Positions 866-39,726 of a DNA stretch of 64,000 nucleotides are shown here, piece after piece. The stretch's first letter is position 1. Each line of letters opens with the position of its first letter. The notes below the pieces were generated by a model. It was not told the origin of the DNA. It saw nothing but the letters and a program-made list of their open reading frames with translations, and ran no database searches. The translations under genes and the position numbers were made by a program. Origin of the DNA: Candidatus Nomurabacteria bacterium RIFCSPHIGHO2_02_40_30 (lineage in GTDB: Bacteria; Patescibacteriota; Minisyncoccia; Phycocordibacterales; UBA9973); contig MFTV01000010.1 in the NCBI GenBank assembly GCA_001785445.1, forward strand, positions 19,235 to 83,234, written 5' to 3'.

Positions 866-1471
866 ATGAATGATGAAGAAGAAATACAAAATAAATCCCT
901 CGATGCTACTCGGGATGATTCTGTTGAATCAGATACTACGGAAGTAGAGGAATTTGAATACAATGACGACGGCGAGGAAGATTTAAAGAAAACTCTGAAA
1001 AAGCTGCGAGCTGATTTAAAATCTTGCCAAAAGGAAAAGGAAGAATATCTGACCGGCTGGCAGAAAGAGCGGGCAGAGTTTGCTAATTATAGAAAAGGCG
1101 AAGATGACAGAAAGACGATGTTTTCGGAATCAATGCGTGAGCATATACTTTCGCGCTTTTTGACTGTTATAGACAGCTTCGATATGGCTTTCGCCAATAA
1201 GCAGGCTTGGGAGAAAGTTGACGAAAATTGGCGCAAGGGTGTGGAGTATATCCATTCTCAAATGAATACTATTTTTGAAGATTATGGGGTCAAGCAAGTA
1301 GGCACGGTAGGAGAAGCTTTTGATCCAAGTATTCATCAGTCTATAGAAGTAGTAGAAACGGACAAAAAAGAACTCGACCACACAGTTTCAGATGTTATTC
1401 AAAAAGGCTACAAGCTGGGCGAACGTGTTATGCGTCCAGCTCGAGTGAATATATACGAATATAAGGAATAA
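866..1471 (+). CDS. grpE: Nucleotide exchange factor GrpE
   Basis: Acidic N-terminus followed by a coiled coil, then a GrpE core: ...FANYRKGEDDRK...LTVIDSFDMAF...AFDPSIHQSIEVVETD...GYKLGERVMRPARV. Confidence 0.85.
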   Translation: MNDEEEIQNKSLDATRDDSVESDTTEVEEFEYNDDGEEDLKKTLKKLRADLKSCQKEKEEYLTGWQKERAEFANYRKGEDDRKTMFSESMREHILSRFLTVIDSFDMAFANKQAWEKVDENWRKGVEYIHSQMNTIFEDYGVKQVGTVGEAFDPSIHQSIEVVETDKKELDHTVSDVIQKGYKLGERVMRPARVNIYEYKE

Positions 1472-1502: not shown

Positions 1503-3158
1503 ATGAAAACAGAAACCAAAAACTGCGCAGACTGTCAAAATAAATTCATAATAGGTGAAGGAGATTTAAAATTATACGAACAAGTAGGGTTGAAGATTTC
1601 TCGCAAGTGTTTCGACTGCCGGACAAAACAGCATTTTATATTTTCTGTCTTCGGCAAATTTCGAAAAGGAGTTTCGGATTTATCTGGTGAGAGCTTAATA
1701 ACAGTTTTCCCAAATAAATCAAGATATCCAGTATATAAATCACATGAATGGTGGAGTGATGCTTGGGATCCGATGACCTACGGACAAGATTACGATCCAA
1801 ATCGCTCGTTTTTCGACCAACTCAAACAACTCCAAGAAAAGGTTCCGCGACCTCATCAAATAGGCCAAAATAACACTAATTGCGATTGGTGTGATGACGC
1901 TTGGAACTGTAAAAATTGCTATCTTTCTCGTTCCATGGATAAGTGTGAAAACTTGAGTTATGCCTATCGGGTGCTTGATAGCAAAGACTCGTTCGATATA
2001 ACTTACAGTTTCAACTTACAAAATTCTTACGACTGTCTTTTTTGCCATGATTCTTTTAATTTAAATTTTTCCGAAAACTCTCGGGATTGCATAGATTCTT
2101 ATTTTCTTTTCGATTGCCGCAATTGTCAAAATTGTTTCATGAGCTACAATTTACGCAACAAGCAATATTGCATTCGTAATAAACAATATTCTAAAGAAGA
2201 ATATAAACAAGAACTCAAAAAAATCAGATTAGATTCACATAAAAATCTAGAAACTCTAAAAAGTGAATTTGAAGACATATTAAAAAAAGAGGCTGTCCAT
2301 AGGGAAAATTTCAATGTCCGAACCAGTAGTTCAGTAGGCAATTATATGACTGATTGCGATAAATGCGTAAATGTTTTCTCTTGGGAAGAATCACAAAATT
2401 GCCGCAATTGCTTGCGAGGTCTTCGCGCAAAGGACTGTATCGATCAAAGTTTTTCGTGGAATACCGAACTATCAGGCAACAATGGAGTCGTAGACGGAGG
2501 ATATCAAATAAAGTACTCCGGCGGATCTTCGACCGGTAGATTCTGTGAATATGTTGATTTGTGCAAAGAGGTTGAGTATTGTTTCGGCTGTGTTGGCCTT
2601 CGCAAAAAGAAATACTGCATTTTAAATAAACAGTACAACAAAGAAGAATATGAAAAATTAAAAGCGCAAATTATTACCAGCATGGAAACGCGAGGCGAGT
2701 ATGGAGACTTTTTTCCTTATTCCATGGGAACCGGCTATTACAATTTATCCAATGGTATAATATATTTCCCCGATACAACCAAAGAAGAAGTTTTAAGAAA
2801 AGGCGGTTATTGGTTAGAAGAAGATCTTACGCAAACTGACGGCATACCATCTTCCAAACTTCCAGATAGTATATTAGATACCTCTCCGGAAATTTCCTCT
2901 CAAGCGTTGATTTGTCCTGAAACACACTATCGATTCAATATTGCAGTTGCAGAATATGAATTTCATAAAAGAAAAGGTTTTGCATTACCCCGCACTCATT
3001 TTGACCAAAGAATCTTAAATCGGATGCGAAAAATGGTTATTAAAAGTTATCCTTATACGTGCATTTACTGCCGAAAAGAGATAAGTGCTTATTATCCGCC
3101 GGAGTGGGAATATAAGAAAATAGCCTGCGAAGAATGTTACAAGCAAAACATAGCCTAA
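1503..3158 (+). CDS. Cysteine-rich multi-zinc-ribbon protein, paralog 1 of 5 (function unknown)
   Basis: 551 aa. N-terminal CxxC..CxxC ribbon, conserved W-W-S-D-x-W-D-P-x-x-Y-G-x-x-Y-D motif, and central Cys/Asn-rich repeats (DCRNCQNCF..NLRNKQYCIxNKQYxKEEY occurs twice). C-terminal CxxC...CxxC. Overall architecture is shared with ORFs at 3184, 4929, 15673 and 38008. Confidence 0.8.
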   Translation: MKTETKNCADCQNKFIIGEGDLKLYEQVGLKISRKCFDCRTKQHFIFSVFGKFRKGVSDLSGESLITVFPNKSRYPVYKSHEWWSDAWDPMTYGQDYDPNRSFFDQLKQLQEKVPRPHQIGQNNTNCDWCDDAWNCKNCYLSRSMDKCENLSYAYRVLDSKDSFDITYSFNLQNSYDCLFCHDSFNLNFSENSRDCIDSYFLFDCRNCQNCFMSYNLRNKQYCIRNKQYSKEEYKQELKKIRLDSHKNLETLKSEFEDILKKEAVHRENFNVRTSSSVGNYMTDCDKCVNVFSWEESQNCRNCLRGLRAKDCIDQSFSWNTELSGNNGVVDGGYQIKYSGGSSTGRFCEYVDLCKEVEYCFGCVGLRKKKYCILNKQYNKEEYEKLKAQIITSMETRGEYGDFFPYSMGTGYYNLSNGIIYFPDTTKEEVLRKGGYWLEEDLTQTDGIPSSKLPDSILDTSPEISSQALICPETHYRFNIAVAEYEFHKRKGFALPRTHFDQRILNRMRKMVIKSYPYTCIYCRKEISAYYPPEWEYKKIACEECYKQNIA

Positions 3159-3183
3159 TACACATTTACGCTATAGCGTATAT

Positions 3184-4872
3184 ATGCAAATGAACCAAGA
3201 AACAAAAAATTGTCAGAATTGTAAAAAAGACTTCACCATAGAGTCGGAGGATTTTAATTTTTACGAAAAGATAAAAGTTCCGCCACCGACAAGGTGTTTT
3301 GAGTGCCGACAACAGAGGCGCTATGCGTGGAGAAATGAACGGACACTATATAGGAGAAATTGTGATTTGTGTAAAAAAAGCACGGTGACGATTTATTCTC
3401 CAAACAAGCCGTACAAAGTTTACTGCAATGAATGCTGGTGGGGCGACGGCTGGGATGCTTCTTCCTATGGGCGAGATTTTGATTTTACTAGGCCATTCTT
3501 CGAGCAATTTGCAGAACTACAGCACGAAGTGCCCCGCATGGCGCTCCTCAATAAAAATAGTGTAAATTCCGACTATACCAACCATTCCGGTGACAACAAA
3601 AATATTTACCTTTCTTTTTCTACGTGGGGGTCTGAAGATGTGATGTATAGTACTTGGGTTTTTTATTCCCGTGACTGCATGGATTCTAGTTTTATTTATG
3701 AAAAAGGTGAACGATTATACGAAATTATTGATTCTCGCACATCCTATCAATGTCAATACGGGCTTTTCTTGAAAGACTGTTCATCTTGTTACTACTGCTA
3801 TGACTGCCGAGGGTGCAACAACTGCTTTATGTCCAGCAACTTGCGAAACAAAAGTTATGTCTTCAAAAATAAACAATATACGAGAGTTGAATATTTGAAA
3901 AAACTAAAGGAATACGATTTATCTTCTCACCTTGTTCGTGAAGGATTAAATAAAGAGTGGAAAGACATGATGCAAAAAGATGCAATTCATCGATATGTGA
4001 TAAGTGAGAGGAATGTGAATTCTACTGGGTCTTTAATTTTTGACTGCAAAAATGTGAAAGATTCTTTTGAAGTTAATAAAGGTGAAGATTCTAAATATCT
4101 GTATTCTACTATCGACCCCAAAAATTGTATGGATTTATATCATGTGGGGCTAAATCTAGAACTGTGTTATGAATTACAGGGTTGTACTCGCACATCCAAT
4201 TGCCAATTCTGCCATCTTTGTTATGACAACATGAACGCAGTGTACTGCGATACTTGCCAAAACAGCCAGAATCTATTCGGCTGTGTCTCAGTGAAAAAGG
4301 GCGAGTATATGATTTTTAATAAAAAGTACTCTAAAGAAGAATATTTGACACTAAAAGAAAAGATTATCGAACATATGAAAAAGACAGGCAGAGAGGAAGG
4401 TGAGTATGGAGAATTTTTCCCACCAAGTATCGCGCCTGTGTATTACAATGAAACACAGGGGAATTTATATATGCCTATGACTAAAGATGAAGTCTTAGCA
4501 AAAGGCTGGCATTGGGAGGACAATGTTCCGAGGACTTTCGGCAAGGAGACAATTAAGAGCGGAGCCATTCCAGACAAAATTGAAGATGTGTCGGACAGCT
4601 ATTTAAGTGAAATTTTTATTTGTATTGATTGTTCTAAAAATTACAATATAACCCAAAACGAGCTTCTTTTTTACCGCAAAGAAATTCTTCCACTCCCTAG
4701 GAAGTGTCCGAATTGTCGCTATAAAAGAAGATTTGATTTACGTCCACCGAGAAAGTTATGGCATAGACAGTGCATGAAAGAGGAGTGTCCAAATGAATTT
4801 GAAACTACTTATGCCCCCGAACGACCTGAAAAAGTGTATTGCGAAAGCTGCTACAACAAAGAAGTTTATTAG
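3184..4872 (+). CDS. Cysteine-rich multi-zinc-ribbon protein, paralog 2 of 5
   Basis: N-terminus QETKNCQNCKKDFTIESEDFNFYEKIKVPPPTRCFECRQQRR and the WWGDGWDASSYGRDFDFTRPFFEQF motif. C-terminus CPNEFETTYAPERPEKVYCESCY has C-x2-C-x17-C-x2-C spacing. Directly tandem to paralogs 1 and 3. Confidence 0.85.
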   Translation: MQMNQETKNCQNCKKDFTIESEDFNFYEKIKVPPPTRCFECRQQRRYAWRNERTLYRRNCDLCKKSTVTIYSPNKPYKVYCNECWWGDGWDASSYGRDFDFTRPFFEQFAELQHEVPRMALLNKNSVNSDYTNHSGDNKNIYLSFSTWGSEDVMYSTWVFYSRDCMDSSFIYEKGERLYEIIDSRTSYQCQYGLFLKDCSSCYYCYDCRGCNNCFMSSNLRNKSYVFKNKQYTRVEYLKKLKEYDLSSHLVREGLNKEWKDMMQKDAIHRYVISERNVNSTGSLIFDCKNVKDSFEVNKGEDSKYLYSTIDPKNCMDLYHVGLNLELCYELQGCTRTSNCQFCHLCYDNMNAVYCDTCQNSQNLFGCVSVKKGEYMIFNKKYSKEEYLTLKEKIIEHMKKTGREEGEYGEFFPPSIAPVYYNETQGNLYMPMTKDEVLAKGWHWEDNVPRTFGKETIKSGAIPDKIEDVSDSYLSEIFICIDCSKNYNITQNELLFYRKEILPLPRKCPNCRYKRRFDLRPPRKLWHRQCMKEECPNEFETTYAPERPEKVYCESCYNKEVY

Positions 4873-4928
4873 TAAACAGCACCAGCTACCATGTACTAGT
4901 ACATAGTAACAATAAATTGTCATTATAT

Positions 4929-6620
4929 ATGCAGAGTGAAACAAAAAATTGCCAAAACTGTAAAGGTGATTTCGTCATCGAACCGGATGATTTTGGGTTT
5001 TATGAACAGATGAAAGTGCCCCCACCAGTATGGTGTCCGCAGTGCAGGCTACTTCGCAGAATGAATTGGTATAGTTATAGAATTCTGTATAAAAGAAAAT
5101 GTGATTTTACCGGTGAGAATATTATTACAATCTATCATCCGGATTTGCCTTACAAAGTTTATAAACAAGATATTTGGTGGAGTGACAAGTGGGACCCAAA
5201 GAGTTATGGCCGGGAGTATGATTTTTCGCGGCCTTTTTTCGAGCAGTTTAAAGAGTTACTAGATGAGGTGCCAAAGGCGGCTCTGCATACAGAATATACT
5301 ACTATGATAAATAGTGAATATTGTAATGCTGCAAGTTACTTGAAAAATAGCTACCTTTGTTTTAAGCACATTACAGGGGAGGATTCTGCCTACACCAACG
5401 TTGTTTCAAATACAAAAGATTCTCTGGATGTAGCTTATTCTTTAGATCCTGAACTTTGCTATGAAATAGTGGACTGCCGTAAATGCTTCCAGGTATTTTT
5501 CTCACAGGATTGTGAAAATTGTCAGAATATTTATTTCTCACGAGATTTAATGAATTGTGGGGATTGTTTTGGCTGTACTTCACTTCGCAATAAAAATTAT
5601 TGCATTTTCAATCAGCAATACACCAGAGAAGAATATTACAAGAAACTTTCGACTTTTGATTTGGGTTCAGTAAAAAATTTACAAGATTTTAGAAAGAAAG
5701 CTTACGAACTTTCTCTGCGTTCTCCCCGAAGGGCATTTCAAGGCAGAAACAATACGAATGTCTCCGGAGACTATGTGTATAATTCAAGAAATGCCAAAAA
5801 TGTCTATTTTATATCCGACTCTGAAAATATAAGGTATACCCAGTTGTTTATAAAAGGAGGAGTACACAATTGTTATGACTTTACAGCTTTTGGTTCTGCC
5901 AGTGAATGGGTTTATGAGGCTACATGGACTGGTCTTAATACTTCCAATGTTAAATTCAGTGTCTGGAATTATCGCAATCACGATACGGAGTATACTTTTG
6001 GTTGTCATGGCAGTGAATACTTGTTTGGCTGTGTCAGTCTGACTAAAGCGTCATATTGTATTTTTAATAAACAATACACGAAAGAAGAATATTTCCCACT
6101 AGTTGAAAAAATTAAAAAACAAATGAATCAGATGCCTTTTGTAGATAGAAGGGGGCTGGAACACAAATATGGCACGCAAATTCCTATTGATCTTTGTCCG
6201 TGGGCATATAACGAGTCCACAGCTTATGAATTTTTTCCAATCACAAAAGAGGAAGCTATCGCTAAAGGTTTTACTTGGCGTGACTCTGACCCGCGGGAAT
6301 ATCTGGACGCTTCTATTACAGTGCCGGAACATATCAAAGATGTAACTGATGAGATTTTGAAAGCGATTTTGAAATGTGTTGCTTGTGGCAAAAATTATCA
6401 AATTATATCCAAAGAATTAGTATTTTTACGCCGTTTTAATTTTCCTATACCGAGCCATTGCCCACTATGTCGAGACCGAGCTCGTATTAAACAATTAAAT
6501 CCTATGGAGACATATGACCGCACGTGTGATAAATGCAGCATATCAATTACTACATCCTATGCCCCAGACCGTCCCGAAATAGTTTACTGCGAAAAATGCT
6601 ATCAGCAGGAAGTTTACTAG
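4929..6620 (+). CDS. Cysteine-rich multi-zinc-ribbon protein, paralog 3 of 5
   Basis: Start moved to ATG 4929 (MQSETKNCQNCKGDF...), which removes the overlap with paralog 2. Carries the same conserved motifs as the family. C-terminus CDKCSISITTSYAPDRPEIVYCEKCYQQEVY. Confidence 0.85.
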   Translation: MQSETKNCQNCKGDFVIEPDDFGFYEQMKVPPPVWCPQCRLLRRMNWYSYRILYKRKCDFTGENIITIYHPDLPYKVYKQDIWWSDKWDPKSYGREYDFSRPFFEQFKELLDEVPKAALHTEYTTMINSEYCNAASYLKNSYLCFKHITGEDSAYTNVVSNTKDSLDVAYSLDPELCYEIVDCRKCFQVFFSQDCENCQNIYFSRDLMNCGDCFGCTSLRNKNYCIFNQQYTREEYYKKLSTFDLGSVKNLQDFRKKAYELSLRSPRRAFQGRNNTNVSGDYVYNSRNAKNVYFISDSENIRYTQLFIKGGVHNCYDFTAFGSASEWVYEATWTGLNTSNVKFSVWNYRNHDTEYTFGCHGSEYLFGCVSLTKASYCIFNKQYTKEEYFPLVEKIKKQMNQMPFVDRRGLEHKYGTQIPIDLCPWAYNESTAYEFFPITKEEAIAKGFTWRDSDPREYLDASITVPEHIKDVTDEILKAILKCVACGKNYQIISKELVFLRRFNFPIPSHCPLCRDRARIKQLNPMETYDRTCDKCSISITTSYAPDRPEIVYCEKCYQQEVY

Positions 6621-9552: not shown

Positions 9553-9771
9553 ATGAAGAAATTAAACTTACAAAATATAGTTTGGAAAGAGGGGAAATAC
9601 TATGTTTCTCAGTGTTTAAATGTAGATGTCTCTAGTTTTGGCAAGACAAAAAAAGAGGCGCTTAAAAATTTAAGTGAAGCTCTAGATTTGTATTTTGAAG
9701 AAAAAAGTATTCCAAAATTCCAAGAGGTTAAAAGCCCGGAAATATTCCCTATGGCTTTTAGGTATGCCTAA
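9553..9771 (+). CDS. hicB: HicB-like antitoxin (type II TA, UPF0150 fold)
   Basis: 72 aa; ...EGKYYVSQCLNVDVSSFGKTKKEALKNLSEALDLYFEE matches the HicB/UPF0150 pattern (..GGYxAxxPELPGCxxxGDTxEEAxxNxxEAIELYLE). Overlaps the next ORF by 8 nt. Confidence 0.55.
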   Translation: MKKLNLQNIVWKEGKYYVSQCLNVDVSSFGKTKKEALKNLSEALDLYFEEKSIPKFQEVKSPEIFPMAFRYA

Positions 9772-9985
9772 ACTTCTGTCTTCCGCACAAATAATAAGTA
9801 TCATTGAAAGAAAAGGTTTCGTTTTTATTTCCCAAAAAGGAAGCCATATGAAATTCAGAAAATACGGGAATAAAAATCTGACAGTAATTGTTCCAGCCAA
9901 TAAAAAAGAAATTCCTATGGGAACCCTTCACTCAATCATTCGTCAGTCTTCCCTTCTTAAAGAAGATTTTTTACTTTCTAAATAA
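9764..9985 (+). CDS. hicA: HicA-like mRNA interferase toxin (YcfA family)
   Basis: Start at internal ATG 9764 (MPKLLSSAQIISIIERKGFVFISQKGSHMKFRKYGNKNLTVIVPANKKEIPMGTLHSIIRQSSL). This matches HicA (..LLxxGFxxxRQKGSHxxxxHPDGRxxTVPxHxxKDLxxGTLxSIxKQAGL). Confidence 0.6.
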   Translation: MPKLLSSAQIISIIERKGFVFISQKGSHMKFRKYGNKNLTVIVPANKKEIPMGTLHSIIRQSSLLKEDFLLSK

Positions 9986-10090
9986 GTTTTACGTATAAAT
10001 CAGAAAGCATCAGAGAGCAATGCTTCTGATGCTGGTATTTTTCTCGCGATTTTTTAAATAGGGCTCGTGAGATGTACCCTGTTTGGTTCG

Positions 10091-10576
10091 TTAAGCCACG
10101 TTAGAAATTACGTGATTGTAGGAAATACAGAGTTTGCCTAGCTCCCAGTTTTGGGAGTCGCTGAACTCTTGTCTGGCCGCATACAGTTCTGCCGCTCGCT
10201 GTTGAACTTTGTCTTCGGAGACAGTAGCATTCTGAAGCTGATACTCTGCCAAAGCCCAGTCGAACCGTGCCCTGGCTTGTGAGATACATAGAGCAACGTG
10301 TCGAGCTGTGCTCGAAAAGGATTCAGGAGTCACTACGTGACGGTCCCGAGCCAGTCGAAGCGAGCCTTGATAGTAGGACGGCACATAGTATTCGCGTGAT
10401 ACCAACATCCACGCGAAGTGATGATCGACCCGTCGTTCCATTTCTTCTTCGTTTGTGTTCACTCGCCCAGTCTCCGCTCGCCAGCGCCAGATTCCATAGG
10501 CTACGCAAAGCACAAATTGGTCAAAGAACCCCTGTTTAACCGGTTGCTGAATTCTTCCCGATTCACTCAACGACAT
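10091..10576 (-). CDS. Hypothetical protein encoded by a compositionally atypical, GC-rich patch
   Basis: 161-aa ORF with ATG preceded by AAAGGAG (6-nt spacer). Local GC is roughly 50% against roughly 35% in flanking genes. Product is W/R-rich with no family recognised by eye. Confidence 0.5.
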   Translation of the reverse strand: MSLSESGRIQQPVKQGFFDQFVLCVAYGIWRWRAETGRVNTNEEEMERRVDHHFAWMLVSREYYVPSYYQGSLRLARDRHVVTPESFSSTARHVALCISQARARFDWALAEYQLQNATVSEDKVQQRAAELYAARQEFSDSQNWELGKLCISYNHVISNVA

Positions 10577-10697
10577 AAAGATCTCCTTTTAGCTAAACTT
10601 AAACTTCCTGATTTTTATACAACTTTTTCTTTTTTTTTGCAATAGATAACTAGGCTTTTTAGGGTGGCTATTTTTTGCTATAATTTCTAAATGAAAT

Positions 10698-11904: not shown

Positions 11905-13920
11905 ATGAGTGATTTACCGGAAATACCTCAAAATAAAGAGCTGACGTATCTTGGCGTCAGTACCTATCGGGACAAAAATGTTCTTTTTGGTATCAAGCGC
12001 AAAGACAGACGCCAGCATGTTTATATTCTTGGTAAGTCCGGCACAGGTAAGTCTGCCTTGATGTTTAACATGATTATTCAAAACATTCAGAACGGCGAGG
12101 GTGTTTGTATGGTAGACCCGCACGGCGAAAATGTGGAAGCGATTCTCTCCGCTATCCCGCCGCATCGCATGAAAGATGTGATTTATTTCAATCCGGCTGA
12201 TGCCGACCACCATATCGGCTTTAATGTTTTAGAACTTATTGACCCGCAGTACAAGCATTTGGTGGCTTCGGGGCTCATGGGTATTTTTACTAAAATTTGG
12301 GCCAATGCTTGGAGCGCCCGAATGGAATATATTTTGAACAATTGCATCCTAGCATTGCTTGACACTCCGGGGACGACGCTTCTCGGCATTCCGAGAATGT
12401 TAGTGGACAAAGATTATCGCCAAAAAATAATTTCTAACTTGAAAGACCCGGTCATCAAGGCTTTCTGGGTGCACGAGTATGAAGCCTGGCAGGACAAATT
12501 TAGGAATGAAGCTATCGCGCCGATTCAGAACAAAGTCGGGCAATTTCTCTCCACTTCTATAATCAGGAATGTCGTCGGTCAGAGCAAGAGCACGATAAAT
12601 ATTTTCGATATGATGAATGAGGGCAAAATTTTTCTGGTGAATGTTTCTAAGGGTCGCATTGGTGAAGACAATTCCGGTCTCTTGGGCGGCATGATTATTA
12701 CCAAAATTCAGCTAGCCGCTATGGAGCGGGTGCGCGTGCCGGAAGAGTCAAGACGCGATTTCTACCTATATGTGGATGAATTCCAGAACTTTGTGACAGA
12801 TGCTTTTGCCGGCATCTTATCCGAAGCTCGCAAGTACAGGCTGAACTTAACCGTGGCGCACCAGTACACCGCCCAGCTTGTCTCCGACAAAAGTACTGCG
12901 GTGCGCGATGCGGTTTTTGGCAACGTGGGCACGATGATAGTTTTTCGGGTTGGCGCTGACGATGCGGAATTTCTAGAAAAAGAATTTGACCCCGAGTTTA
13001 CTCCACAGGATTTAGTCAACCTGCCGAATTACAAAGCCTACCTGAAATTAATGATAGACGGTGTGACCTCCCGTCCTTTTTCCGCTAAAACTTTGCCGCC
13101 CATGGTCAAGTCGGGCAATAAAGAAGTTGAAGAAGAAGTGATTAAATCTTCCCGTGATTTGTATTGTCGGCCGAAAGCAGTAGTAGAAAGAGAGATTAAT
13201 GATTGGAGTGGAATGTCGCTCGGTGATGATAATGCTCACTCTTCTTCAACTTTGGAGAAGTTTCCAGCTATATGTTCAATGTGTAAAAAAGAAACTACGG
13301 TGCCATTCAAGCCAGAGCCAGGCAGAGCGGTGTATTGCAAAGAGTGTATAGCTAAAATAAAGTCAGGTGAAGTAAAAGTAGAGAAAGGTTCTGAAAATCA
13401 AATTAAATATGATGAATCTAAATTTTTCAAACCATTGGCTGACCTAGGCATAGAATTCGAACAGAAAGATAAAGGCGGGCACAACGGAGAAGACAGGCAT
13501 CCAGAGAGAGGCTTTACTCATACAGCAGCGCACACGAAAAGCCAACCCGGAATACTGGGAGCTATTAAAAAAGTATTCAATAAAACTCCTGCCCCAGTTG
13601 AGATTCCCAAAAAGCCAAAACCAGAAAATCTAGCTTTGAAAGAAGTTTTAGGTAAAATAAATGAACCAGCCTCGACTAGCGCGAGTCTAGGCGGGCCAGT
13701 TTCACTCGACACCCTAAAAGACAAAATCAAAGAAACAAATAAAAATTTAACACATTCTAAAGACCGTTCCGCCAGCCCAGAAGAAATGCATAAATTAAAA
13801 GATTTAATTATTGAGAAAATGGAAAAAAATGAAGATAAAAAAGTTTCAGAACCTCCTTTGACACCAGGCAACATAAAAGAAGTGCCGGAAGATGTCCTCC
13901 GAAAAATTTTAGAACAGTAA
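11905..13920 (+). CDS. TraD/TraG/VirD4-family (T4SS coupling-protein-like) P-loop ATPase with C-terminal DksA/TraR-like C4 zinc finger and charged tail
   Basis: Walker A YILGKSGTGKS, Walker B FYLYVDEFQNF, and a TraG-D_C-like region (SEARKYRLNLTVAHQYTAQL...FGNVGTMIVFRVGADD). Near the C-terminus CSMC-x17-CKEC with ...PEPGRAVYCKEC, then a long K/E-rich tail. Confidence 0.75.
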   Translation: MSDLPEIPQNKELTYLGVSTYRDKNVLFGIKRKDRRQHVYILGKSGTGKSALMFNMIIQNIQNGEGVCMVDPHGENVEAILSAIPPHRMKDVIYFNPADADHHIGFNVLELIDPQYKHLVASGLMGIFTKIWANAWSARMEYILNNCILALLDTPGTTLLGIPRMLVDKDYRQKIISNLKDPVIKAFWVHEYEAWQDKFRNEAIAPIQNKVGQFLSTSIIRNVVGQSKSTINIFDMMNEGKIFLVNVSKGRIGEDNSGLLGGMIITKIQLAAMERVRVPEESRRDFYLYVDEFQNFVTDAFAGILSEARKYRLNLTVAHQYTAQLVSDKSTAVRDAVFGNVGTMIVFRVGADDAEFLEKEFDPEFTPQDLVNLPNYKAYLKLMIDGVTSRPFSAKTLPPMVKSGNKEVEEEVIKSSRDLYCRPKAVVEREINDWSGMSLGDDNAHSSSTLEKFPAICSMCKKETTVPFKPEPGRAVYCKECIAKIKSGEVKVEKGSENQIKYDESKFFKPLADLGIEFEQKDKGGHNGEDRHPERGFTHTAAHTKSQPGILGAIKKVFNKTPAPVEIPKKPKPENLALKEVLGKINEPASTSASLGGPVSLDTLKDKIKETNKNLTHSKDRSASPEEMHKLKDLIIEKMEKNEDKKVSEPPLTPGNIKEVPEDVLRKILEQ

Positions 13921-13922
13921 GA

Positions 13923-15683
13923 ATGAAGATAGAAACCCAAAATTTATCATGGCTAGATATACCAAAGTCTATTTGGTATTTTCTAGAAAAAGATAAAAAG
14001 AAGTCTCTTTTTTATTTTATCGTCATTGTCATAGCATTTTTTTATGATCTCGTTCCCGCATATATTGTAGGTAAAATGGTTGATTTTTTTACTGGCTATA
14101 CACAGGGTCAATCACTTAGTCTTTTTTATTTTTATGTAGTTTTTGTAGGTGTTACTTGGATAGTAGCCTCTCTCATACGCTTAAAAAGCCATAAAGTTTT
14201 AAGTATCGCCAGTAAAAAAGCTCGTACCCGAGCACGTGTTTGGGGATTTGAGCGCTTAACCGAGTTTTCTCTCGGGTGGCATAATAAAGAAAATACAGGA
14301 AACAAATTTCAGCGAATTTTTACTGGAGCAGAAGCTATTGAAAAATGGGTATTAATATTAAGAAGAGATTTGCTTCGGATTATGGCTAACTCTGTCGGGG
14401 TGTTAATATTTTTTTTATTTCTAGACTTTAAATTTATTTCTTTAGTGCTTATATATGCGTTACTTTTTTTGTATGTCGAATTTTCGTTCGGTAAGAAAAT
14501 ACTTAGATTAAGTAATGATTTTAATCTATCTAATCAATCGGCAGGAGGGGTTTACATAGAAAGCGCAAACAATATGCTTGCTGTCAAAGCATTAGGTGCG
14601 AAAGATGGCTTGGTTTCTCGTGTTAAAGATAAAGAAACTATTTCCCGTGATCTTTCGATACAAAAAACAACTATTAGTAATTTCAAGTGGCAACTGTTGC
14701 AGTTTATAAACGGCTTTTCAATAAGTATTTTTCTTTTAATTGCTGGTTTTGCCAGTATTTCTAATGCTATAACAATTGGTATGGTTTTAGTAATATTCAC
14801 TTACTTCTCTAAACTGCAAACTTCATTAAGTGAAATAAGTAACTTACACATGGATGTAATAGATCTTCGTTCAGATCTTGGCAACATGATGCCAATATTT
14901 AAGGAGACAGAATTTATTAAGACAGGCAATGAAAGTTTTCCGAAAGATTGGCAAAAAGTTGAAATTAAAAATGGAGTTATGGATTATGGCTCTGGGCAAA
15001 TGGGGTTAAAAGATTTTAATTTAGTGTTAAAAAGGAATACCAAAACCGGTATTGCCGGGTTATCTGGCTCCGGCAAGTCTACGTTGGCAAAAATTATTTT
15101 AGGCTTATACGGCTTGAAAACAGGGACTTTTAAAGTAGGCAATAAAAATTATTATTCAATTGCGCACAACGAAACCTTGAGCAATATTAGTGTGGTTCTG
15201 CAAGAGACAGAACTTTTTAATCTTTCTTTGCGGGACAACATCACTATGATGCGCGTGGAAGACAAAGAACTTCTGGATATAGCAGTAGAAATTTCCAATC
15301 TTGATGAAGTTATAGGCCGTTTACCGGAGGGGCTCGATGCTATGATAGGTGAAAAAGGGTACATGCTCTCCGGCGGGGAGAGGCAACGTCTCGGCATTGC
15401 CCGTGCGATTTATAAAAATGCGCCAATTATAATTCTCGACGAAGCCACGTCTTCGCTTGATTCGGAGACGGAAGGCAAAATAATGGAGAAACTTTTAGGA
15501 GAGTACGGTAAAGACAAAACTTTCTTAATCATTGCGCACCGCTTGGGTACGCTTAAATATACTGACAACATTGCCGTGATGGAAAGAGGGAAAGTAGTGG
15601 AAGAAGGAAGTTATGATAAGTTAATGAACAACCAGAGCTCTGTCTTTTATAGAATGAATAAAGAAAAAAAAGATGAAAAATAG
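13923..15683 (+). CDS. ABC transporter, fused permease/ATP-binding protein (exporter type)
   Basis: N-terminal 6-TM domain. Nucleotide-binding domain has Walker A GLSGSGKST, signature LSGGERQRLGIARA, and Walker B IIILDEATSSLD. The 3' end overlaps the next gene by 11 nt. Confidence 0.85.
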   Translation: MKIETQNLSWLDIPKSIWYFLEKDKKKSLFYFIVIVIAFFYDLVPAYIVGKMVDFFTGYTQGQSLSLFYFYVVFVGVTWIVASLIRLKSHKVLSIASKKARTRARVWGFERLTEFSLGWHNKENTGNKFQRIFTGAEAIEKWVLILRRDLLRIMANSVGVLIFFLFLDFKFISLVLIYALLFLYVEFSFGKKILRLSNDFNLSNQSAGGVYIESANNMLAVKALGAKDGLVSRVKDKETISRDLSIQKTTISNFKWQLLQFINGFSISIFLLIAGFASISNAITIGMVLVIFTYFSKLQTSLSEISNLHMDVIDLRSDLGNMMPIFKETEFIKTGNESFPKDWQKVEIKNGVMDYGSGQMGLKDFNLVLKRNTKTGIAGLSGSGKSTLAKIILGLYGLKTGTFKVGNKNYYSIAHNETLSNISVVLQETELFNLSLRDNITMMRVEDKELLDIAVEISNLDEVIGRLPEGLDAMIGEKGYMLSGGERQRLGIARAIYKNAPIIILDEATSSLDSETEGKIMEKLLGEYGKDKTFLIIAHRLGTLKYTDNIAVMERGKVVEEGSYDKLMNNQSSVFYRMNKEKKDEK

Positions 15684-17451
15684 CGAAATAAAAAATTGCC
15701 AAAATTGCAAGAAAGATTTCACCGTTGAGCCGGAGGATTTTAATTTTTATGAAAAAATCAAAGTTCCTCCGCCAACTTTTTGCCCAGAATGCAGGCTGGT
15801 GCGGCGAATGCTGTGGCGTAATGAACGCTCGCTTTTCAAAAGGTCTTGCGCCAAAACGAGCAAACAAATAATCACCATGTTTCATCCGGATGCTAAGGTG
15901 GTGGTATATGACCATGACACATGGTGGAGTGACCAGTGGGAACCGACCGATTATGGAAAAGATTATGATTTTTCTAAACCGTTTTTTGAGCAATTCAAAG
16001 AATTACTTTACCGAACATCATTAGCGAATTTAGGAAATTCCAATAACGTTGGCAGTCCTTACGGCAATCACAATGCCGACTGCAAGTATTGCTATTTATT
16101 ATACGCTTCTTTCAACGTTGAACGAACACATTATTCTTATGGCGCGGTTAGATTGAAAGATTGCATGGATATGTATGTCTGTTTGCATTCCGAATTGTGT
16201 TATAACGATATTGTCAGCACTGATTTGTATAAAACTCATTTTTCTTATGACGCGGACGAGTCTGTTAATTGCTTTTTTCTGAAGTATTCTAAAAATATGC
16301 AAGACAGTATTGGCTGTATAAATTTGAGAAATAAAAGTCATTGCATTTTAAATGTAGAATATTCAAAAGAAGAGTACGAGAAAAGGAAAAAAGAGTTTGA
16401 TTTCGGCAGTTATAAAGTTTTGTTTGAATTTGAAAATTCTTTTAACAGACTTGTCCTTAATGTTCCGTACCGATATGCGCACATCATGAAATCTAAAGAT
16501 GTTACCGGAGACAATATTATAAACTCTAAAAATGTAAAGAATTGTTTTGATATTTATCAAAATGTGGAAGATTCAAAGTATTTAATTCATTGCTTGGACG
16601 CCAAGGACTGTTATGACTTATATGGCGGTGGCGCGGTGGCATCTTTAATGTACGAAGGAGTGGATATTGGAAAAGAATCGTCCAAGCAATTATTTTCCAT
16701 ACTCACTCATACTTGTTTCCAAACTTATTATACCTACATGTGCTATAACTCAAAAAATCTTTTTGGCTGTATCGGCTTGCGGGGGAAGCAGTACTGCATT
16801 TTGAATAAGCAGTATTCCAAAGAAAAATATTTTGAACTATTGCCGAAAATTATTGAGCATATGAATACCATGCCCTATAAAGATAAAAAAGGACTAATTT
16901 ATAAATATGGAGAATTTTTCCCAAGCGAATTATCGCCTTTTGCTTATAACGAGACAATTGCCCAAGAATATTTTACAAAAACTAAAGAAGAAATTGTTAA
17001 AGACGGATATACTTATAGAACTTCACCGGCAAAGGATTATCAAGCGACTATTTTGAACAAAGATTTACCAGATCATATCAAAGATGTTTCTGATTCTATT
17101 CTTAAAGAGGTGATTGCTTGTCCTAACGATGGCAAAGAACTGACTCAATGTACCAAAGCTTATCGTATTATTAAATCCGAGTTAGAATTTCTAAAAAATA
17201 ATAACATTGCTTTGCCGCGCTATTGCCCCAATTGCCGTCACTATAAAAGACTCAAGCAAAGAAATCCATTCAAACTCTGGCAGGCTAAATGTCAGTGCGC
17301 TGGGGCTAACTCTCAAAATAAAAAATACAAAAACACAATAAAACATACTCATGGAACCAAACCTTGTCCGAACGAATTTGAAACAAGCTATGCTCCTGAC
17401 CGACCGGAAATTATTTATTGTGAAAAATGTTACCAGCAGGAAGTTTATTGA
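15673..17451 (+). CDS. Cysteine-rich multi-zinc-ribbon protein, paralog 4 of 5
   Basis: MKNSEIKNCQNCKKDFTVEPEDFNFYEKIKVPPPTFCPECRLVRR..., the WWSDQWEPTDYGKDYDFSKPFFEQF motif, and C-terminus CPNEFETSYAPDRPEIIYCEKCYQQEVY. The ATG sits inside the ABC exporter stop region, which suggests translational coupling. Confidence 0.85.
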   Translation: MKNSEIKNCQNCKKDFTVEPEDFNFYEKIKVPPPTFCPECRLVRRMLWRNERSLFKRSCAKTSKQIITMFHPDAKVVVYDHDTWWSDQWEPTDYGKDYDFSKPFFEQFKELLYRTSLANLGNSNNVGSPYGNHNADCKYCYLLYASFNVERTHYSYGAVRLKDCMDMYVCLHSELCYNDIVSTDLYKTHFSYDADESVNCFFLKYSKNMQDSIGCINLRNKSHCILNVEYSKEEYEKRKKEFDFGSYKVLFEFENSFNRLVLNVPYRYAHIMKSKDVTGDNIINSKNVKNCFDIYQNVEDSKYLIHCLDAKDCYDLYGGGAVASLMYEGVDIGKESSKQLFSILTHTCFQTYYTYMCYNSKNLFGCIGLRGKQYCILNKQYSKEKYFELLPKIIEHMNTMPYKDKKGLIYKYGEFFPSELSPFAYNETIAQEYFTKTKEEIVKDGYTYRTSPAKDYQATILNKDLPDHIKDVSDSILKEVIACPNDGKELTQCTKAYRIIKSELEFLKNNNIALPRYCPNCRHYKRLKQRNPFKLWQAKCQCAGANSQNKKYKNTIKHTHGTKPCPNEFETSYAPDRPEIIYCEKCYQQEVY

Positions 17452-17597: not shown

Positions 17598-19100
17598 ATG
17601 CCCAAGCCGAATCGAGTGCAGATAATAAAATATGGTCCGCCGCCGCCGGAGTTACCGGTCTTCGGAAAGGTTAAACCCGAAGACGTTTCTTTTATTGGGC
17701 GGACTAATTATGTGGCATCTCTCGAAGAAAAGAAATTTATTTTTGGCATTAAGCGCATAGACCGACGCAGGCATTTGTATATATTAGGGAAATCCGGTGT
17801 CGGCAAGAGCAAATTGCTCGAGCTTTTAATGCGCCAAGACATTACTTACAATCATGGACTTTGCCTGATTGATCCACATGGTGACGAACTTGAAGGAATA
17901 CTGGATTATATACCCAAAGAACGCATCGAAGATGTTTGCATTATTGACCCGACTGACGTTAATTTCCCGGCTTCTTTTAATCCGCTGGCGAACGTTGACC
18001 CGATGTTCAAGTTTCAGCTCACGCAAGGACTGATCGAAGTTTTTCAAAAACAATTCGGCGCCAACTGGACGCCTCGACTTGAGCACGTTTTCCGTTTCAC
18101 TTGTCTGGCGCTTTTGGATTATCCACATGCCACCATGCGTGGAATGATTTCCATGCTGACCGATAGAAATTACCGGCAGAAAGTGGTGGAGTATATTACG
18201 GATGACATGGTAAAAAGATTCTTCGCTATTGAATTCGCCGATTGGTCGGAAAAATTCGATACTGATGCGATTATTCCATTAGTTAACAAATTAGGGCAAT
18301 TTCTATCCGACCCCTTGCTTCGCAATATTTTCGGTCAAAAAGAAAATAAAATAGATATCAGCGAATTAATGAATCAGGAAAAAATAATTCTGATTAATAT
18401 TTCTAAAGGTCGGCTGGGAGAAGAAAATTCTTCTTTCCTCGGGTCAATCTTTCTCACTAAAATAAAACAAGCCGGTATGGAACGTGCCGCAATTCCGGAA
18501 AGAGAAAGAAAAGATTTCTATTTATATGTAGACGAGTTTCAAAATGTTGTTACCCAAACTTTTGAAAATATTTTATCGGAGGCCAGAAAATATGCCTTGA
18601 ATTTAACTATCGCGCACCAATATGTCGGACAGATTATTCCCAGAGTCCACCAAGCAGTGCTTGGTAATTGTGGTAGCGTGATTACTTTTCGCGTCGGCGG
18701 TGAAGACGCAGTCAAAATGAAACCTGAGTTTGCTCCGCTCTTTGATGTTAAGGACATGATCAATCTTGCCGTGACAGAGTTTTATATAAAAATGACTATT
18801 GACGGCGAATCTTACGACCCATTCTCGGCAGAAACCTTGAAAGTTTTGTCGCCAACTCATCCTTCATATAGAGAAGAAATAGTAGCCGCTTCTCACCGAA
18901 AATATTCGATACCGAAAGATGCCGCAGCCAAACTCATTGCCGAAGAAGAAGCCACTATCATTCGAAGTTCTGAGGAAAAAGCTATTATTGAAAGTAAAGC
19001 TAAGAGAAAAGAAAAAGAAAAAGGATTGGCAAGTGAAGAGGGAACAGCAGACACAAGTTCAAAAAAGAAAACTTCCCAAGAAGCTGAACCTATGATATAA
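17598..19100 (+). CDS. TraD/TraG/VirD4-family P-loop ATPase, paralog 2 (no zinc finger)
   Basis: YILGKSGVGKSKLLELL...DPHGDE, FYLYVDEFQNVV, and ARKYALNLTIAHQYVGQI...GNCGSVITFRVGGED. Colinear with the 11905 protein but lacks its CxxC tail. Confidence 0.75.
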   Translation: MPKPNRVQIIKYGPPPPELPVFGKVKPEDVSFIGRTNYVASLEEKKFIFGIKRIDRRRHLYILGKSGVGKSKLLELLMRQDITYNHGLCLIDPHGDELEGILDYIPKERIEDVCIIDPTDVNFPASFNPLANVDPMFKFQLTQGLIEVFQKQFGANWTPRLEHVFRFTCLALLDYPHATMRGMISMLTDRNYRQKVVEYITDDMVKRFFAIEFADWSEKFDTDAIIPLVNKLGQFLSDPLLRNIFGQKENKIDISELMNQEKIILINISKGRLGEENSSFLGSIFLTKIKQAGMERAAIPERERKDFYLYVDEFQNVVTQTFENILSEARKYALNLTIAHQYVGQIIPRVHQAVLGNCGSVITFRVGGEDAVKMKPEFAPLFDVKDMINLAVTEFYIKMTIDGESYDPFSAETLKVLSPTHPSYREEIVAASHRKYSIPKDAAAKLIAEEEATIIRSSEEKAIIESKAKRKEKEKGLASEEGTADTSSKKKTSQEAEPMI

Positions 19101-38007: not shown

Positions 38008-39726
38008 ATGGAAAAGAAATCACAAAAGGTGGTGTGTCAGAATTGTAGGGCTAATTTCGTCATCGAACCGAATGATTTCGGTTTTTATGAAAAAATAAAA
38101 GTTCCACCACCGACCTTTTGTCCAGAATGCCGAAGACAGCGCAGATGGGCTTGGAGGAACAATATGTCTCTTTACTCTAGGAAATGTAAACTATGCGACG
38201 AATCTGTAATTTCTATTTATTCTCCGGATTCTAGTATTATTATTTACTGCAATAAATGCTGGTGGAGCGATAAGTGGGACCCAAAAAGCTACGGAAAAGA
38301 GTATGATTTCTCAAAACCATTTTTTACGCAGTTCAAGGAGCTAATGCAGAAAGTGCCTCATATGTCAGTGGTCAATGATGATGGTATTGCGAGCGTAAAC
38401 TGTGAGTACACCCACGATTGGTGGTTTTCCAAAGACTGCTATATGTGCTTCTCCGGCTGGAATGTGCAGAGCGTTATGTATAGTTTTTTTATGTTGCAGG
38501 GACGGGACATGATGGACTGCAATATTATTCGTTCCAAAAGTGAAAATCTATATGAATGCGTGCGCGGCAAAAATTCGTATCAATTGAAATATTCCCAACT
38601 ATGCTTGGCTTGCATCGATTCCCAATTTTTATATGATTGCGCCAACTGCTCGAATTGTTTTATGTGCGCCAACCTAAGGAACAAAAAATATCATTTTAAG
38701 AATAAAGAGTATTCCAAAGAGGAGTATGAAAAGATTTTAGCAAGTTACCGGCTCGATACATTTTCTGGTGTAGAGAGAGCGCAAAAAGAATACGATGAGT
38801 TTATTTTGCAGTATCCCAGAAGGTATGTGTTTATAACCCACAGCTTGAATTGCAATGGTGACCATATTTCTTTTTCTAAAAATTTAAAAAATTGTTTCGT
38901 GGCTAAAAATTGTGAAAACTGCAGGTATTCTGAATTTATCGGTGATGCCAATAACCCGAACAAAGACTGCTACGATATCACCATGTCCGGCGGGGTGTCA
39001 GAAAGCTATGAAGGGGTAGTCATAGATCACTCACAGCTCAATCTTTTCTCTGTATTCTCCGTTAAGAGCCAAGACTTGAAGTACACACAACATTGCCACA
39101 ACTGCAAGCACTGCTTCGGCTGTGTCGGTTTGCGGAATGCAAACTACTGCATTTTTAACAAACAATATACGAAAGAAGAATATGAAAAGCTTATGCCGAA
39201 AATTATAGGACACATGAATAAAATGCCCTATGTTGACCACATAGGAAATTCCTATGGATATGGGGAATTTTACCCCATAGAGATGTCACCCTTCGGCTAT
39301 AATGAAACATACGCTCCAGAGCTTCAGATGTTTACAAGGGAGGAAGCAGAAAATAACGGCTACAACTGGCGGGAGAATGTACAAAGAACTAAAGGCAAGG
39401 AAACTATTTATCCGGAGGACATTCCGAATTCTGTTGATGATGTGGCAGACAATATACTCGACGAAGTTTTGTGCTGCATTGTCTGTGAAAGAAATTATAA
39501 AATTGTTCCAAAGGAGCTTATTTTTTATAGAAAGTTAAAAATTCCGATTCCACGCAGATGTTTCTACTGCCGTTACCAAATGCGCCTACTCAAAACAAAC
39601 TCTTTGAAGCTCTGGCATAGAAAGTGCATGAAAGAAGGCTGTAAAAATGAATTTGAGACCTCATATGCACCGGAGCGGCCGGAAATTGTTTATTGTGAAA
39701 AATGTTATCAGAGTGAGGTATATTAA
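38008..39726 (+). CDS. Cysteine-rich multi-zinc-ribbon protein, paralog 5 of 5
   Basis: Start set at MEKKSQKVVCQNCRANFVIEPNDFGFYEKIKVPPPTFCPECRRQRR (ATG 38008); the longer 37879 start would overlap the divergent gene. Has the WWSDKWDPKSYGKEYDFSKPFF motif and C-terminus CKNEFETSYAPERPEIVYCEKCYQSEVY. The stop lies 15 nt before mraY. Confidence 0.85.
   Translation: MEKKSQKVVCQNCRANFVIEPNDFGFYEKIKVPPPTFCPECRRQRRWAWRNNMSLYSRKCKLCDESVISIYSPDSSIIIYCNKCWWSDKWDPKSYGKEYDFSKPFFTQFKELMQKVPHMSVVNDDGIASVNCEYTHDWWFSKDCYMCFSGWNVQSVMYSFFMLQGRDMMDCNIIRSKSENLYECVRGKNSYQLKYSQLCLACIDSQFLYDCANCSNCFMCANLRNKKYHFKNKEYSKEEYEKILASYRLDTFSGVERAQKEYDEFILQYPRRYVFITHSLNCNGDHISFSKNLKNCFVAKNCENCRYSEFIGDANNPNKDCYDITMSGGVSESYEGVVIDHSQLNLFSVFSVKSQDLKYTQHCHNCKHCFGCVGLRNANYCIFNKQYTKEEYEKLMPKIIGHMNKMPYVDHIGNSYGYGEFYPIEMSPFGYNETYAPELQMFTREEAENNGYNWRENVQRTKGKETIYPEDIPNSVDDVADNILDEVLCCIVCERNYKIVPKELIFYRKLKIPIPRRCFYCRYQMRLLKTNSLKLWHRKCMKEGCKNEFETSYAPERPEIVYCEKCYQSEVY

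Follow-up and report, generated by a model that had tools for sequence, protein, structure and literature searches.

A Patescibacterial family of cysteine-rich zinc-finger proteins with a predicted beta-solenoid core and its gene neighbourhood link to soluble VirD4/TrwB-like ATPases

A large part of bacterial diversity belongs to the Candidate Phyla Radiation (CPR, or Patescibacteria), whose genomes are very small and whose lineage-specific genes mostly have no known role. Here we describe a family of large cysteine-rich proteins, represented by five paralogs (P1 to P5) in 64,000 nucleotides (nt) of Candidatus Nomurabacteria bacterium RIFCSPHIGHO2_02_40_30 (assembly GCA_001785445.1, contig MFTV01000010.1, positions 19,235 to 83,234). 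This whole stretch is called the window below, and coordinates without further indication refer to it. The closest described counterparts of the two ends of these proteins are the CxxC-x17-CxxC fingers (TIGR04272/PF23477, zf_Tbcl_2) and the zf_Tbcl fingers (PF13451), which are known as families of single small modules with no known role, whereas four modules here frame a core of ~300 residues outside both models, and many members of the family lack the cysteines of fingers 2 and 3. Zinc binding has been shown experimentally for small CxxC-x17-CxxC proteins of Methanosarcina (PMC12704099).

The second described counterpart concerns the neighbourhood of the family. Two ATPases encoded in the window match the families of the VirD4/TrwB coupling proteins of type IV secretion systems (T4SS), yet both lack the N-terminal transmembrane (TM) domain of those proteins, and no known coupling-protein partner is built like the proteins described here. 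Only 148 of 5,713 coupling-protein homologues in CPR genomes were found near virB4, and the same 2025 survey was unable to tie the VirD4-like ATPases of CPR bacteria to type IV secretion and left open their co-option for another function (PMC12102498). The two ATPases of the window are examples of these "orphan" coupling-protein homologues reported for Patescibacteria.

The five paralogs are encoded as follows, Cys4 denoting a finger site with all four cysteines and aa denoting amino acids:
1503..3158, + strand: P1, 551 aa; Cys4 kept in fingers 1 and 4 only, with degenerate fingers 2 and 3
3184..4872, + strand: P2, 562 aa; Cys4 intact in all four fingers; the best-conserved paralog
4929..6620, + strand: P3, 563 aa from the ATG at 4929; fingers 1, 3 and 4 intact
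15673..17451, + strand: P4, 592 aa; between an ATP-binding cassette (ABC) exporter gene and the second ATPase gene
38008..39726, + strand: P5, 572 aa; four intact fingers; upstream of mraY-ftsW-murG

An initial annotation, made from the letters of the window, had proposed five open reading frames (ORFs) with one common architecture, and all five are indeed present, intact, 551-592 aa long and alignable from end to end. Their pairwise identity is 28-44% (BLASTP, E 3e-59 to 6e-163). A hidden Markov model (HMM) of the family recovered each of the five from the six-frame translation of the window at E ≤ 1e-188 and found no sixth paralog there. The view that this is a real family is borne out, and the family is under purifying selection. 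The mechanical ORF of P3 begins at a TTG at 4839 and has 593 aa, and the ATG at 4929 gives 563 aa; the latter is taken as the start because the family N-terminus and the length of the public gene call both agree with it. The longest ORF of P5 begins at 37879, and its start at 38008 is placed by the family alignment only, because the exact 572-aa version is not in the public collection. The other four paralogs are found in public databases, where they are labelled "hypothetical" or "uncharacterized". The proteins contain 29-38 cysteines each (4.9-6.6% of residues). As had been claimed, they carry neither a signal peptide nor a TM helix (the maximal 19-residue Kyte-Doolittle mean is ≤1.1 in all five), and the five paralogs are predicted to be cytoplasmic.

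Two independent AlphaFold2 (AF2) structure models, one of P1 and one of P2, have the same layout. The mean predicted local distance difference test (pLDDT) and the predicted template modelling score (pTM) are 86.4 and 0.85 for P2, and 85.4 and 0.86 for P1. In P2 the layout, for the core taken from the DSSP assignment of the models and from periodicity, is:
3202..3438, + strand: N-terminal finger pair, basic (isoelectric point, pI, ~9); zinc module 1, zf_Tbcl-like, residues 7-46; zinc module 2, zf_Tbcl_2-like, residues 53-85
residues ~86-119: Trp-rich linker and helix
3541..4383, + strand: beta-rich core, residues 120-400; two solenoid halves, a beta-hairpin and a helix closing each
residues 401-476: acidic, partly helical
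4612..4869, + strand: C-terminal finger pair, residues 477-562; zinc module 3, a second zf_Tbcl-like finger, residues 477-522; zinc module 4, a second CxxC-x17-CxxC-like finger, residues 523-562

Each protein end consists of a pair of treble-clef-type fingers, a zf_Tbcl-like one followed by a CxxC-x17-CxxC (zf_Tbcl_2-like) one, and the chain of P2 stops six residues past its last cysteine. The N-terminal CxxC-x24-CxxC finger of the initial annotation and its C-terminal copy were both confirmed. The second CxxC..CxxC pair is complete in P2 and P5 only; P1 has no cysteine there, and P3 and P4 have one each. The last finger, which had been described as C-x2-C-x17-C-x2-C, is present, and this spacing occurs in P3, whereas P2 and P5 have C-x4-C-x17-CxxC and P1 has x18 in place of x17. 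In P2 and P5 the second finger shares the spacing of the last one. The last finger of P4 contains a C-x-C...H-x-H insert (17218-17292, residues ~516-540), which is frequent among relatives and may form an extra metal site interleaved with the Cys4 site.

Conservation of the cysteines was analyzed in an alignment of the five window proteins and 150 representatives of clusters at 50% identity (n = 155). All four cysteines are kept in 141 of the 155 members for finger 1, in 70 for finger 2, in 108 for finger 3 and in 149 for finger 4. Losses in fingers 1 and 4 follow no single dominant pattern; in finger 2, 84 members retain at most one cysteine, and in finger 3, 33 members retain one. The terminal Cys4 sites are therefore all-or-none, a lost site retaining at most one cysteine in nearly every case, and because they are retained or lost as a whole they are regarded as real metal sites. 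Judged from the alignment, these terminal sites are the only ones that behave as metal sites, with two to four per protein (two in P1, three in P3 and P4, four in P2 and P5).

At profile level the end fingers belong with the zf_Tbcl_2 and, probably, the zf_Tbcl fingers. Comparison by hhalign of the last finger of the family with the zf_Tbcl_2 finger found in one of the window ATPases gave a probability of 89.7% (E = 1.9e-6), and the AF2 models of P1 and P2 show a beta-hairpin and a helix in the zf_Tbcl-like fingers. In Pfam, P2 matched zf_Tbcl at E = 7e-4 and zf_Tbcl_2 at E = 2e-3, both below threshold. For zf_Tbcl, P2 scored 19.9 bits in two stretches, one N-terminal and one C-terminal, and P5 scored 15.6 bits (cut-off 24 bits); for zf_Tbcl_2, the window proteins scored 18.3-18.7 bits in Pfam (cut-off 27) and 13-17 bits with NCBIfam TIGR04272 (cut-off 36). 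A Pfam scan of 89 members (E ≤ 0.01 for zf_Tbcl_2) found zf_Tbcl in 17 (best E = 3.2e-7) and zf_Tbcl_2 in 18 (best E = 2e-5), and these were the only Pfam families recurring across the 89 proteins. The JGI annotation of one relative reads "CxxC-x17-CxxC domain-containing protein". The finger-bearing termini are basic (pI 8.3-9.3, about 9), residues 383-476 are acidic and the solenoid is near neutral; a conserved Arg follows the second CxxC of the fingers.

The likeness of the last finger to the C4 fingers of DksA/TraR, which the initial annotation had pointed out, did not hold. The cysteines and the "RP" before the third cysteine do align in register and the CxxC-x17-CxxC spacing is common to both, but there was no match to Pfam zf-dskA_traR (PF01258) at E ≤ 1, and hhalign gave ~5% (5.3% against Escherichia coli DksA) versus 90% for zf_Tbcl_2. 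The coiled coil of DksA/TraR has no equivalent before the finger in the models of P1 and P2. By these sequence comparisons the likeness is a coincidence of spacing.

From the models and the periodicity of the sequence, we conclude that the core is probably a very tight, internally duplicated beta-solenoid of ~12-residue coils, with small residues pointing inward at every third position. The cysteines of the core occupy a single one of the three possible registers (lag-3 autocorrelation 0.67); a lag-12 periodicity was found for Asn/Asp (0.48) and for hydrophobic residues (0.36). The central block had been described as Cys/Asn-rich repeats within a multi-zinc-ribbon protein, a description that does not survive for this part. 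Core cysteines number 8-37 per protein, with even counts in 45%, and form a mosaic in which Ser, Leu, Val or Met take their place; the maximal pairwise phi is 0.39, which leaves no coupled pairs. Because they are interchangeable, unpaired and show no preference for even counts, the core cysteines are best regarded as packing residues, neither zinc ribbons nor disulfides. A disulfide ladder and a stacked-metal ladder were both considered and ruled out by the cysteine mosaic and the pairing statistics. The coil C208-C211-C214-C217 reads CCCC in 81 of the 155 members.

The sequence motifs reported earlier were mostly found again. The Y-C-I-x-N-K-x-Y-x-K-E-E-Y motif does occur twice (in an "F-G/x-C..." form) and corresponds, in the models, to the hairpin and helix that close each half of the core, and GEYGEFFP was confirmed. 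The W-W-S-D... motif is present and conserved, although not every one of its positions is invariant as had been stated. Outside the fingers, aromatic and structural residues make up most of the positions conserved in at least 90% of members, and His, Ser and Lys are absent from these positions. Column identity in the solenoid is 0.72-0.83 inside ortholog groups versus 0.49-0.51 between paralogs, and this difference suggests that each paralog line has its own binding surface.

Three kinds of described beta-helices are close enough for comparison. The antifreeze protein of Tenebrio molitor (TmAFP, repeat pattern TCTxSxxCxxAx) has a coil of ~12 residues with small inward residues at every third position, as predicted here. 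TmAFP is secreted and has strictly conserved disulfides, whereas our family has no signal peptide and a mosaic of unpaired cysteines, and the TxT ice-binding face of TmAFP is absent from the family; the likeness to TmAFP-type beta-helices is one of repeat geometry only. Pentapeptide-repeat proteins (for example Qnr/MfpA) offer an analogy: they are cytoplasmic, non-enzymatic quadrilateral beta-helices, each coil of which has four short faces, and they work through recognition by their surface. Their coils have 20 residues (4x5), against 12 (4x3) in the family, which has no Pfam Pentapeptide match and a near-neutral solenoid instead of their DNA-like acidic one. The left-handed beta-helix hexapeptide transferases are marked by an [LIV]-G-x4 repeat, 18 residues per coil and a catalytic His, features that the family does not have.

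Database searches agree with the earlier remark that the central repeat was not recognised as any named domain, since Pfam, NCBIfam and PADLOC returned nothing over the central ~300 residues. PHROGs gave a single weak match (phrog_15341, function not known, E = 2e-5), and a sequence profile search of the PDB gave marginal LIM-domain matches to the last finger and nothing else. With Foldseek no match below E = 2.7 was obtained in the PDB, and the viral models of BFVD yielded isolated zinc ribbons only; the core looks like a fold variant without a solved relative. The defence-protein models of PADLOC gave one spurious match (13.9 bits) and no known anti-phage system. One fragment of 123 nt was found in viral contigs, and tblastn against phages matched a finger only; the family is not regarded as a phage or mobile-element family because it is essentially absent from these collections. 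No description of the family was found in open-access text, and a metatranscriptome paper on Paceibacteria does not mention it. No known system contains a protein built this way.

The family is large. A profile of the five paralogs matched 5,393 clusters (50% identity) at E ≤ 1e-3 and 2,266 at E ≤ 1e-30, and homologue searches returned more than 6,300 matches per query. The relatives inspected were the best-scoring 80-150 of each search; the 150 cluster representatives among the matches listed are 523-612 aa long. A scan of one genome per species gave at least 580 loci, and the 80 listed were all from Patescibacteria (Nomura-, Pacei-, Lipton-, Harrison-, Peregrini-, Peri-, Gracili- and Abawacabacteria). 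Some metagenome-assembled genomes labelled "Saccharibacteria" have the gene order of Nomurabacteria, and this label is treated with caution. Members usually form tandem arrays: 60 of 83 loci have two to five of them at full length, which with few exceptions share a strand. Copy numbers of five or more were also found in several further genomes of a limited sample.

The initial annotation spoke of an expanding family, which is only partly right. Orthologs of P1 are 57-83% identical and those of P2 72-83%. P1, P2 and P4 are old paralogs, because their positional orthologs elsewhere share 54-77% identity, compared with 28-44% between the paralogs of the window. A clear ortholog is lacking for P3. 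All five paralogs are equally distant from the arrays of Peregrinibacteria and Gracilibacteria, which makes some lineage-specific expansion possible.

The most consistent neighbour of the VirD4-like ATPases is this family, and the link is reciprocal. In the window, the genes concerned are:
11905..13920, + strand: long soluble VirD4/TrwB-like ATPase, 671 aa; Pfam TrwB_AAD_bind (1.9e-11), DUF87, T4SS-DNA_transf and TraG-D_C
13923..15683, + strand: ABC exporter half-transporter; Pfam ABC_membrane and ABC_tran; recurs in related loci
17598..19100, + strand: second, shorter soluble VirD4/TrwB-like ATPase, 500 aa, identified by Pfam; directly upstream of dnaJ

Neither ATPase contains a TM segment, and no virB4, relaxase or other T4SS or secretion gene was found in the 64-kb window. 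The long ATPase carries, besides a long charged tail, the zf_Tbcl_2 finger mentioned above (residues 452-484, 13258-13356, Pfam E = 6.8e-12). Metagenome loci keep the order ATPase - family gene(s) - ATPase - dnaJ, and positional orthologs of P4 lie between the two ATPases in other genomes. Among 80 metagenome loci centred on an ATPase, 53 contain a family gene (adjacent and on the same strand in 40), and among those of at least 12 kb the fraction is 31 of 36. In the opposite direction, 82 non-redundant family-centred loci were counted, and a VirD4/TrwB-like ATPase is a neighbour in 22 of them by clustering and in 21 by HMM, adjacent and on the same strand in 18. As a rough estimate, the chance expectation is a few per cent in either direction, assuming about two ATPases per genome and a window that covers 1-2% of a genome of ~1 Mb. 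The proposal that the family is a component of an undescribed system gains from this, since the reciprocal link to the VirD4/TrwB-like ATPases makes it look like part of a larger system. The last 11 nt of the ABC exporter gene (15673-15683) are also the first of P4, which suggests translational coupling of the two genes.

Other Paceibacteria encode, ahead of the short ATPase, two membrane-anchored proteins of ~460 and ~171 aa that carry no annotation (locus L110, 6073-7997; locus L156, 6112-7976; and ~24-40 other loci). The ~460-aa protein has an N-terminal TM segment and a domain, DUF8128 in public annotation, that resembles the N-terminal domain of the long ATPases, and the pair follows secD-secF and a sigma70_r4/HARE-HTH protein. 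Neither of the two is encoded in the window.

We infer, with a probability of roughly 45%, that the family provides non-enzymatic recognition or adaptor (specificity) subunits of the soluble VirD4/TrwB-like ATPases. The zinc-stabilised fingers common to both would dock a family protein on the ATPase or hold a common ligand, probably a nucleic acid, and the rigid, paralog-specific face of the solenoid would give each paralog its own target. A wider proposal is doubtful at present, namely that the family, the soluble ATPases and, in other lineages, the two small membrane partners make up a new CPR-specific ATP-driven machine in which the paralogs are interchangeable specificity subunits. Within that proposal, the core would tentatively count as a new class of cytoplasmic beta-solenoid, built of 12-residue coils in a tripeptide register and packed with cysteines inside. 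If such a machine exists, it would explain the role of thousands of "orphan" coupling-protein homologues in Patescibacteria. CPR genomes have about two VirD4-like ATPases each, for which the family is a concrete candidate partner. Its arrays are maintained within operons of core functions (ribosomal proteins, grpE-dnaK-dnaJ and the cell-wall cluster), and this large undescribed family takes a notable coding share of very small genomes.

Several points weigh against the adaptor reading. The link to the ATPases is one of gene neighbourhood alone; about three quarters of the family-centred loci have no ATPase inside 6 kb, and in the window P1-P3 and P5 are not adjacent to one. The ATPase-centred sample is biased towards Paceibacteria, and its ATPases share 49-92% identity with the one in the window. 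None of the finger matches of the window proteins reaches the curated Pfam cut-offs, and only charge and fold class point to nucleic-acid binding. In the models, the first half of the solenoid is predicted with moderate confidence (pLDDT 60-77), and the high pTM points to fingers packed against the core instead of free arms, which weakens the idea of a nucleic-acid clamp.

The wider surroundings of the genes bear on the alternatives. The order in the window is rpsI-grpE-P1-P2-P3-PaaX-like (- strand)-dnaK-...-long ATPase-ABC exporter-P4-second ATPase-dnaJ, and it includes:
866..1471, + strand: grpE, 31 nt upstream of P1
6639..7154, - strand: PaaX-like regulator, convergent with P3 and divergent from dnaK; Pfam PaaX_M (1.5e-19)

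The gaps grpE-P1, P1-P2 and P2-P3 measure 31, 25 and 56 nt, and no terminator-like site was found on the + strand from grpE to P3; co-transcription of these four genes is likely because the gaps are short and free of such a site. The P1-P2 gap contains a perfect 14-nt palindrome, TACGCTATAGCGTA, at 3167-3180. No purine run resembling a Shine-Dalgarno sequence was detected in the 30 nt upstream of P1, P2, P3 and P5 (1473-1502, 3154-3183, 4899-4928 and 37978-38007), and the corresponding stretch of P4 (15643-15672), which lies inside the coding sequence of the ABC exporter, contains a run of A. An AT-rich "tata(t/g)a" stands immediately 5' of the ATG of P1-P3.

P1 is also the first gene after grpE in other Paceibacteria. 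In another Nomurabacteria genome four members fill the grpE-dnaK slot and a fifth follows the ATPase, and in a more distant genome two members separate map from secY-adk-[an AA_kinase-domain gene, possibly pyrH]. The genes near P5 include scpA/scpB and mraY. The PaaX-like regulator, whose middle domain is Cas2-like, stands between the array and dnaK in 8 related Paceibacteria loci, and arrays of Peregrinibacteria and Peribacteria have a divergent TrmB-like regulator (locus L061, 5089-5847, and 16 other loci). A homology between the two types of regulator was tested, and they are not detectably related. In the 82 family-centred loci, the further recurrent neighbours are the TrmB-like regulator (17 loci, usually divergent), grpE and rpoA (13 each), several ribosomal-protein genes (9-11 each), the PaaX-like regulator (8), dnaK (7) and an ABC ATPase (7). 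The dnaK context was seen in Paceibacteria only.

One alternative is that the proteins are exported or injected cargo, such as adhesins or effectors of an epibiotic lifestyle, recognised by a VirD4-like ATPase together with either membrane partners or the adjacent ABC exporter, and kept export-competent by DnaK, DnaJ and GrpE. Their genes adjoin coupling-protein-like ATPases, the short ATPase elsewhere follows two membrane-anchored proteins and secD-secF, and the exporter gene overlaps the start of P4. Cys-rich beta-helices with 12-residue coils, such as TmAFP, are typically extracellular, and multi-paralog arrays beside a secretion ATPase recall type VII substrates. However, no signal peptide or TM segment was found in the five paralogs, and the core cysteines lack the conserved pairs or parity that structural disulfides need; the Cys4 zinc fingers are a cytoplasmic feature common to a cytoplasmic ATPase. 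T4SS substrates use a disordered, charged C-terminal tail, whereas these proteins end six residues past the last finger without one. With 57-83% identity between orthologs of different genera, the sequences evolve slowly for surface or effector proteins; moreover, the ATPases lack a TM domain, and the window has no virB4. We consider the cargo explanation improbable.

There is likewise only a small chance that the family consists of housekeeping RNA- or DNA-binding factors, for example associated with the ribosome or nucleoid, which act independently of the ATPases, would be expressed along with ribosomal-protein and chaperone operons, and adjoin the ATPases only through the compact gene order of CPR genomes. 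The arrangement rpsI-grpE-[array]-dnaK in the window and 13 loci would agree with this, as would secY-adk-[AA_kinase-domain gene, possibly pyrH]-[array]-map in another genome, the position of P5 close to scpA/scpB and mraY, the missing terminator-like site between grpE and P3, and the basic finger pairs with a conserved Arg at both ends. On the other hand, the link to the ATPases was found in both sampled groups, Paceibacteria and Peregrini-/Gracilibacteria, despite their different gene order, and the ATPase itself carries the finger of the family. TrmB-like (17 loci) or PaaX-like (8 loci) regulators flank the arrays, and such dedicated regulators suggest conditional rather than constitutive expression.

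A role in metal or redox handling (as a zinc or Fe-S store, buffer or chaperone), or as a zinc-dependent holdase of the DnaJ/Hsp33 type, has slim prospects. It is suggested by the 29-38 cysteines per protein, by the genes in the dnaK operon region and by the CCCC coil (C208-C211-C214-C217) in 81 of 155 members. Paralogs with and without fingers 2 and 3 coexist in one genome, and zinc-containing and zinc-free paralogs of ribosomal proteins, to which they may be likened, serve zinc economy. Yet most of the core cysteines swap with Ser, Leu, Val or Met in an uncorrelated way, as expected of packing residues and not of ligands, and two to four metal sites in ~560 aa give a poor store; conserved, paralog-specific solenoid surfaces are unexpected for a buffer, and the dnaK context is confined to Paceibacteria. 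That the solenoid core is an enzyme, for example a left-handed beta-helix acyltransferase or another transferase, is very improbable, as neither Hexapep nor another enzyme family matched, the repeat has 12 residues in a register of 3 and not 6 and 18, no invariant His, Ser or Lys was found in the core, and all fold scores were below significance.

The five genes of ~1.7 kb occupy about 13% of the 64-kb window, and the remainder consists of housekeeping genes. Between dnaK and a gene for a hydrolase of the haloacid dehalogenase (HAD) type lies a GC-rich island (10000-10600; GC 0.47-0.52, against a window mean of 0.39). A structured RNA was considered for this island and rejected, as there was no Rfam match and no excess of RNA structure. 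It holds an ORF of 161 aa (10091-10576, - strand), which in contrast to P1, P2, P3 and P5 has a strong ribosome-binding site (AAAGGAG). This ORF matched nothing in Pfam and is adjoined by a HicA-toxin-like ORF (9695-9985, Pfam E = 3.7e-15), and the island looks like a small foreign insertion.

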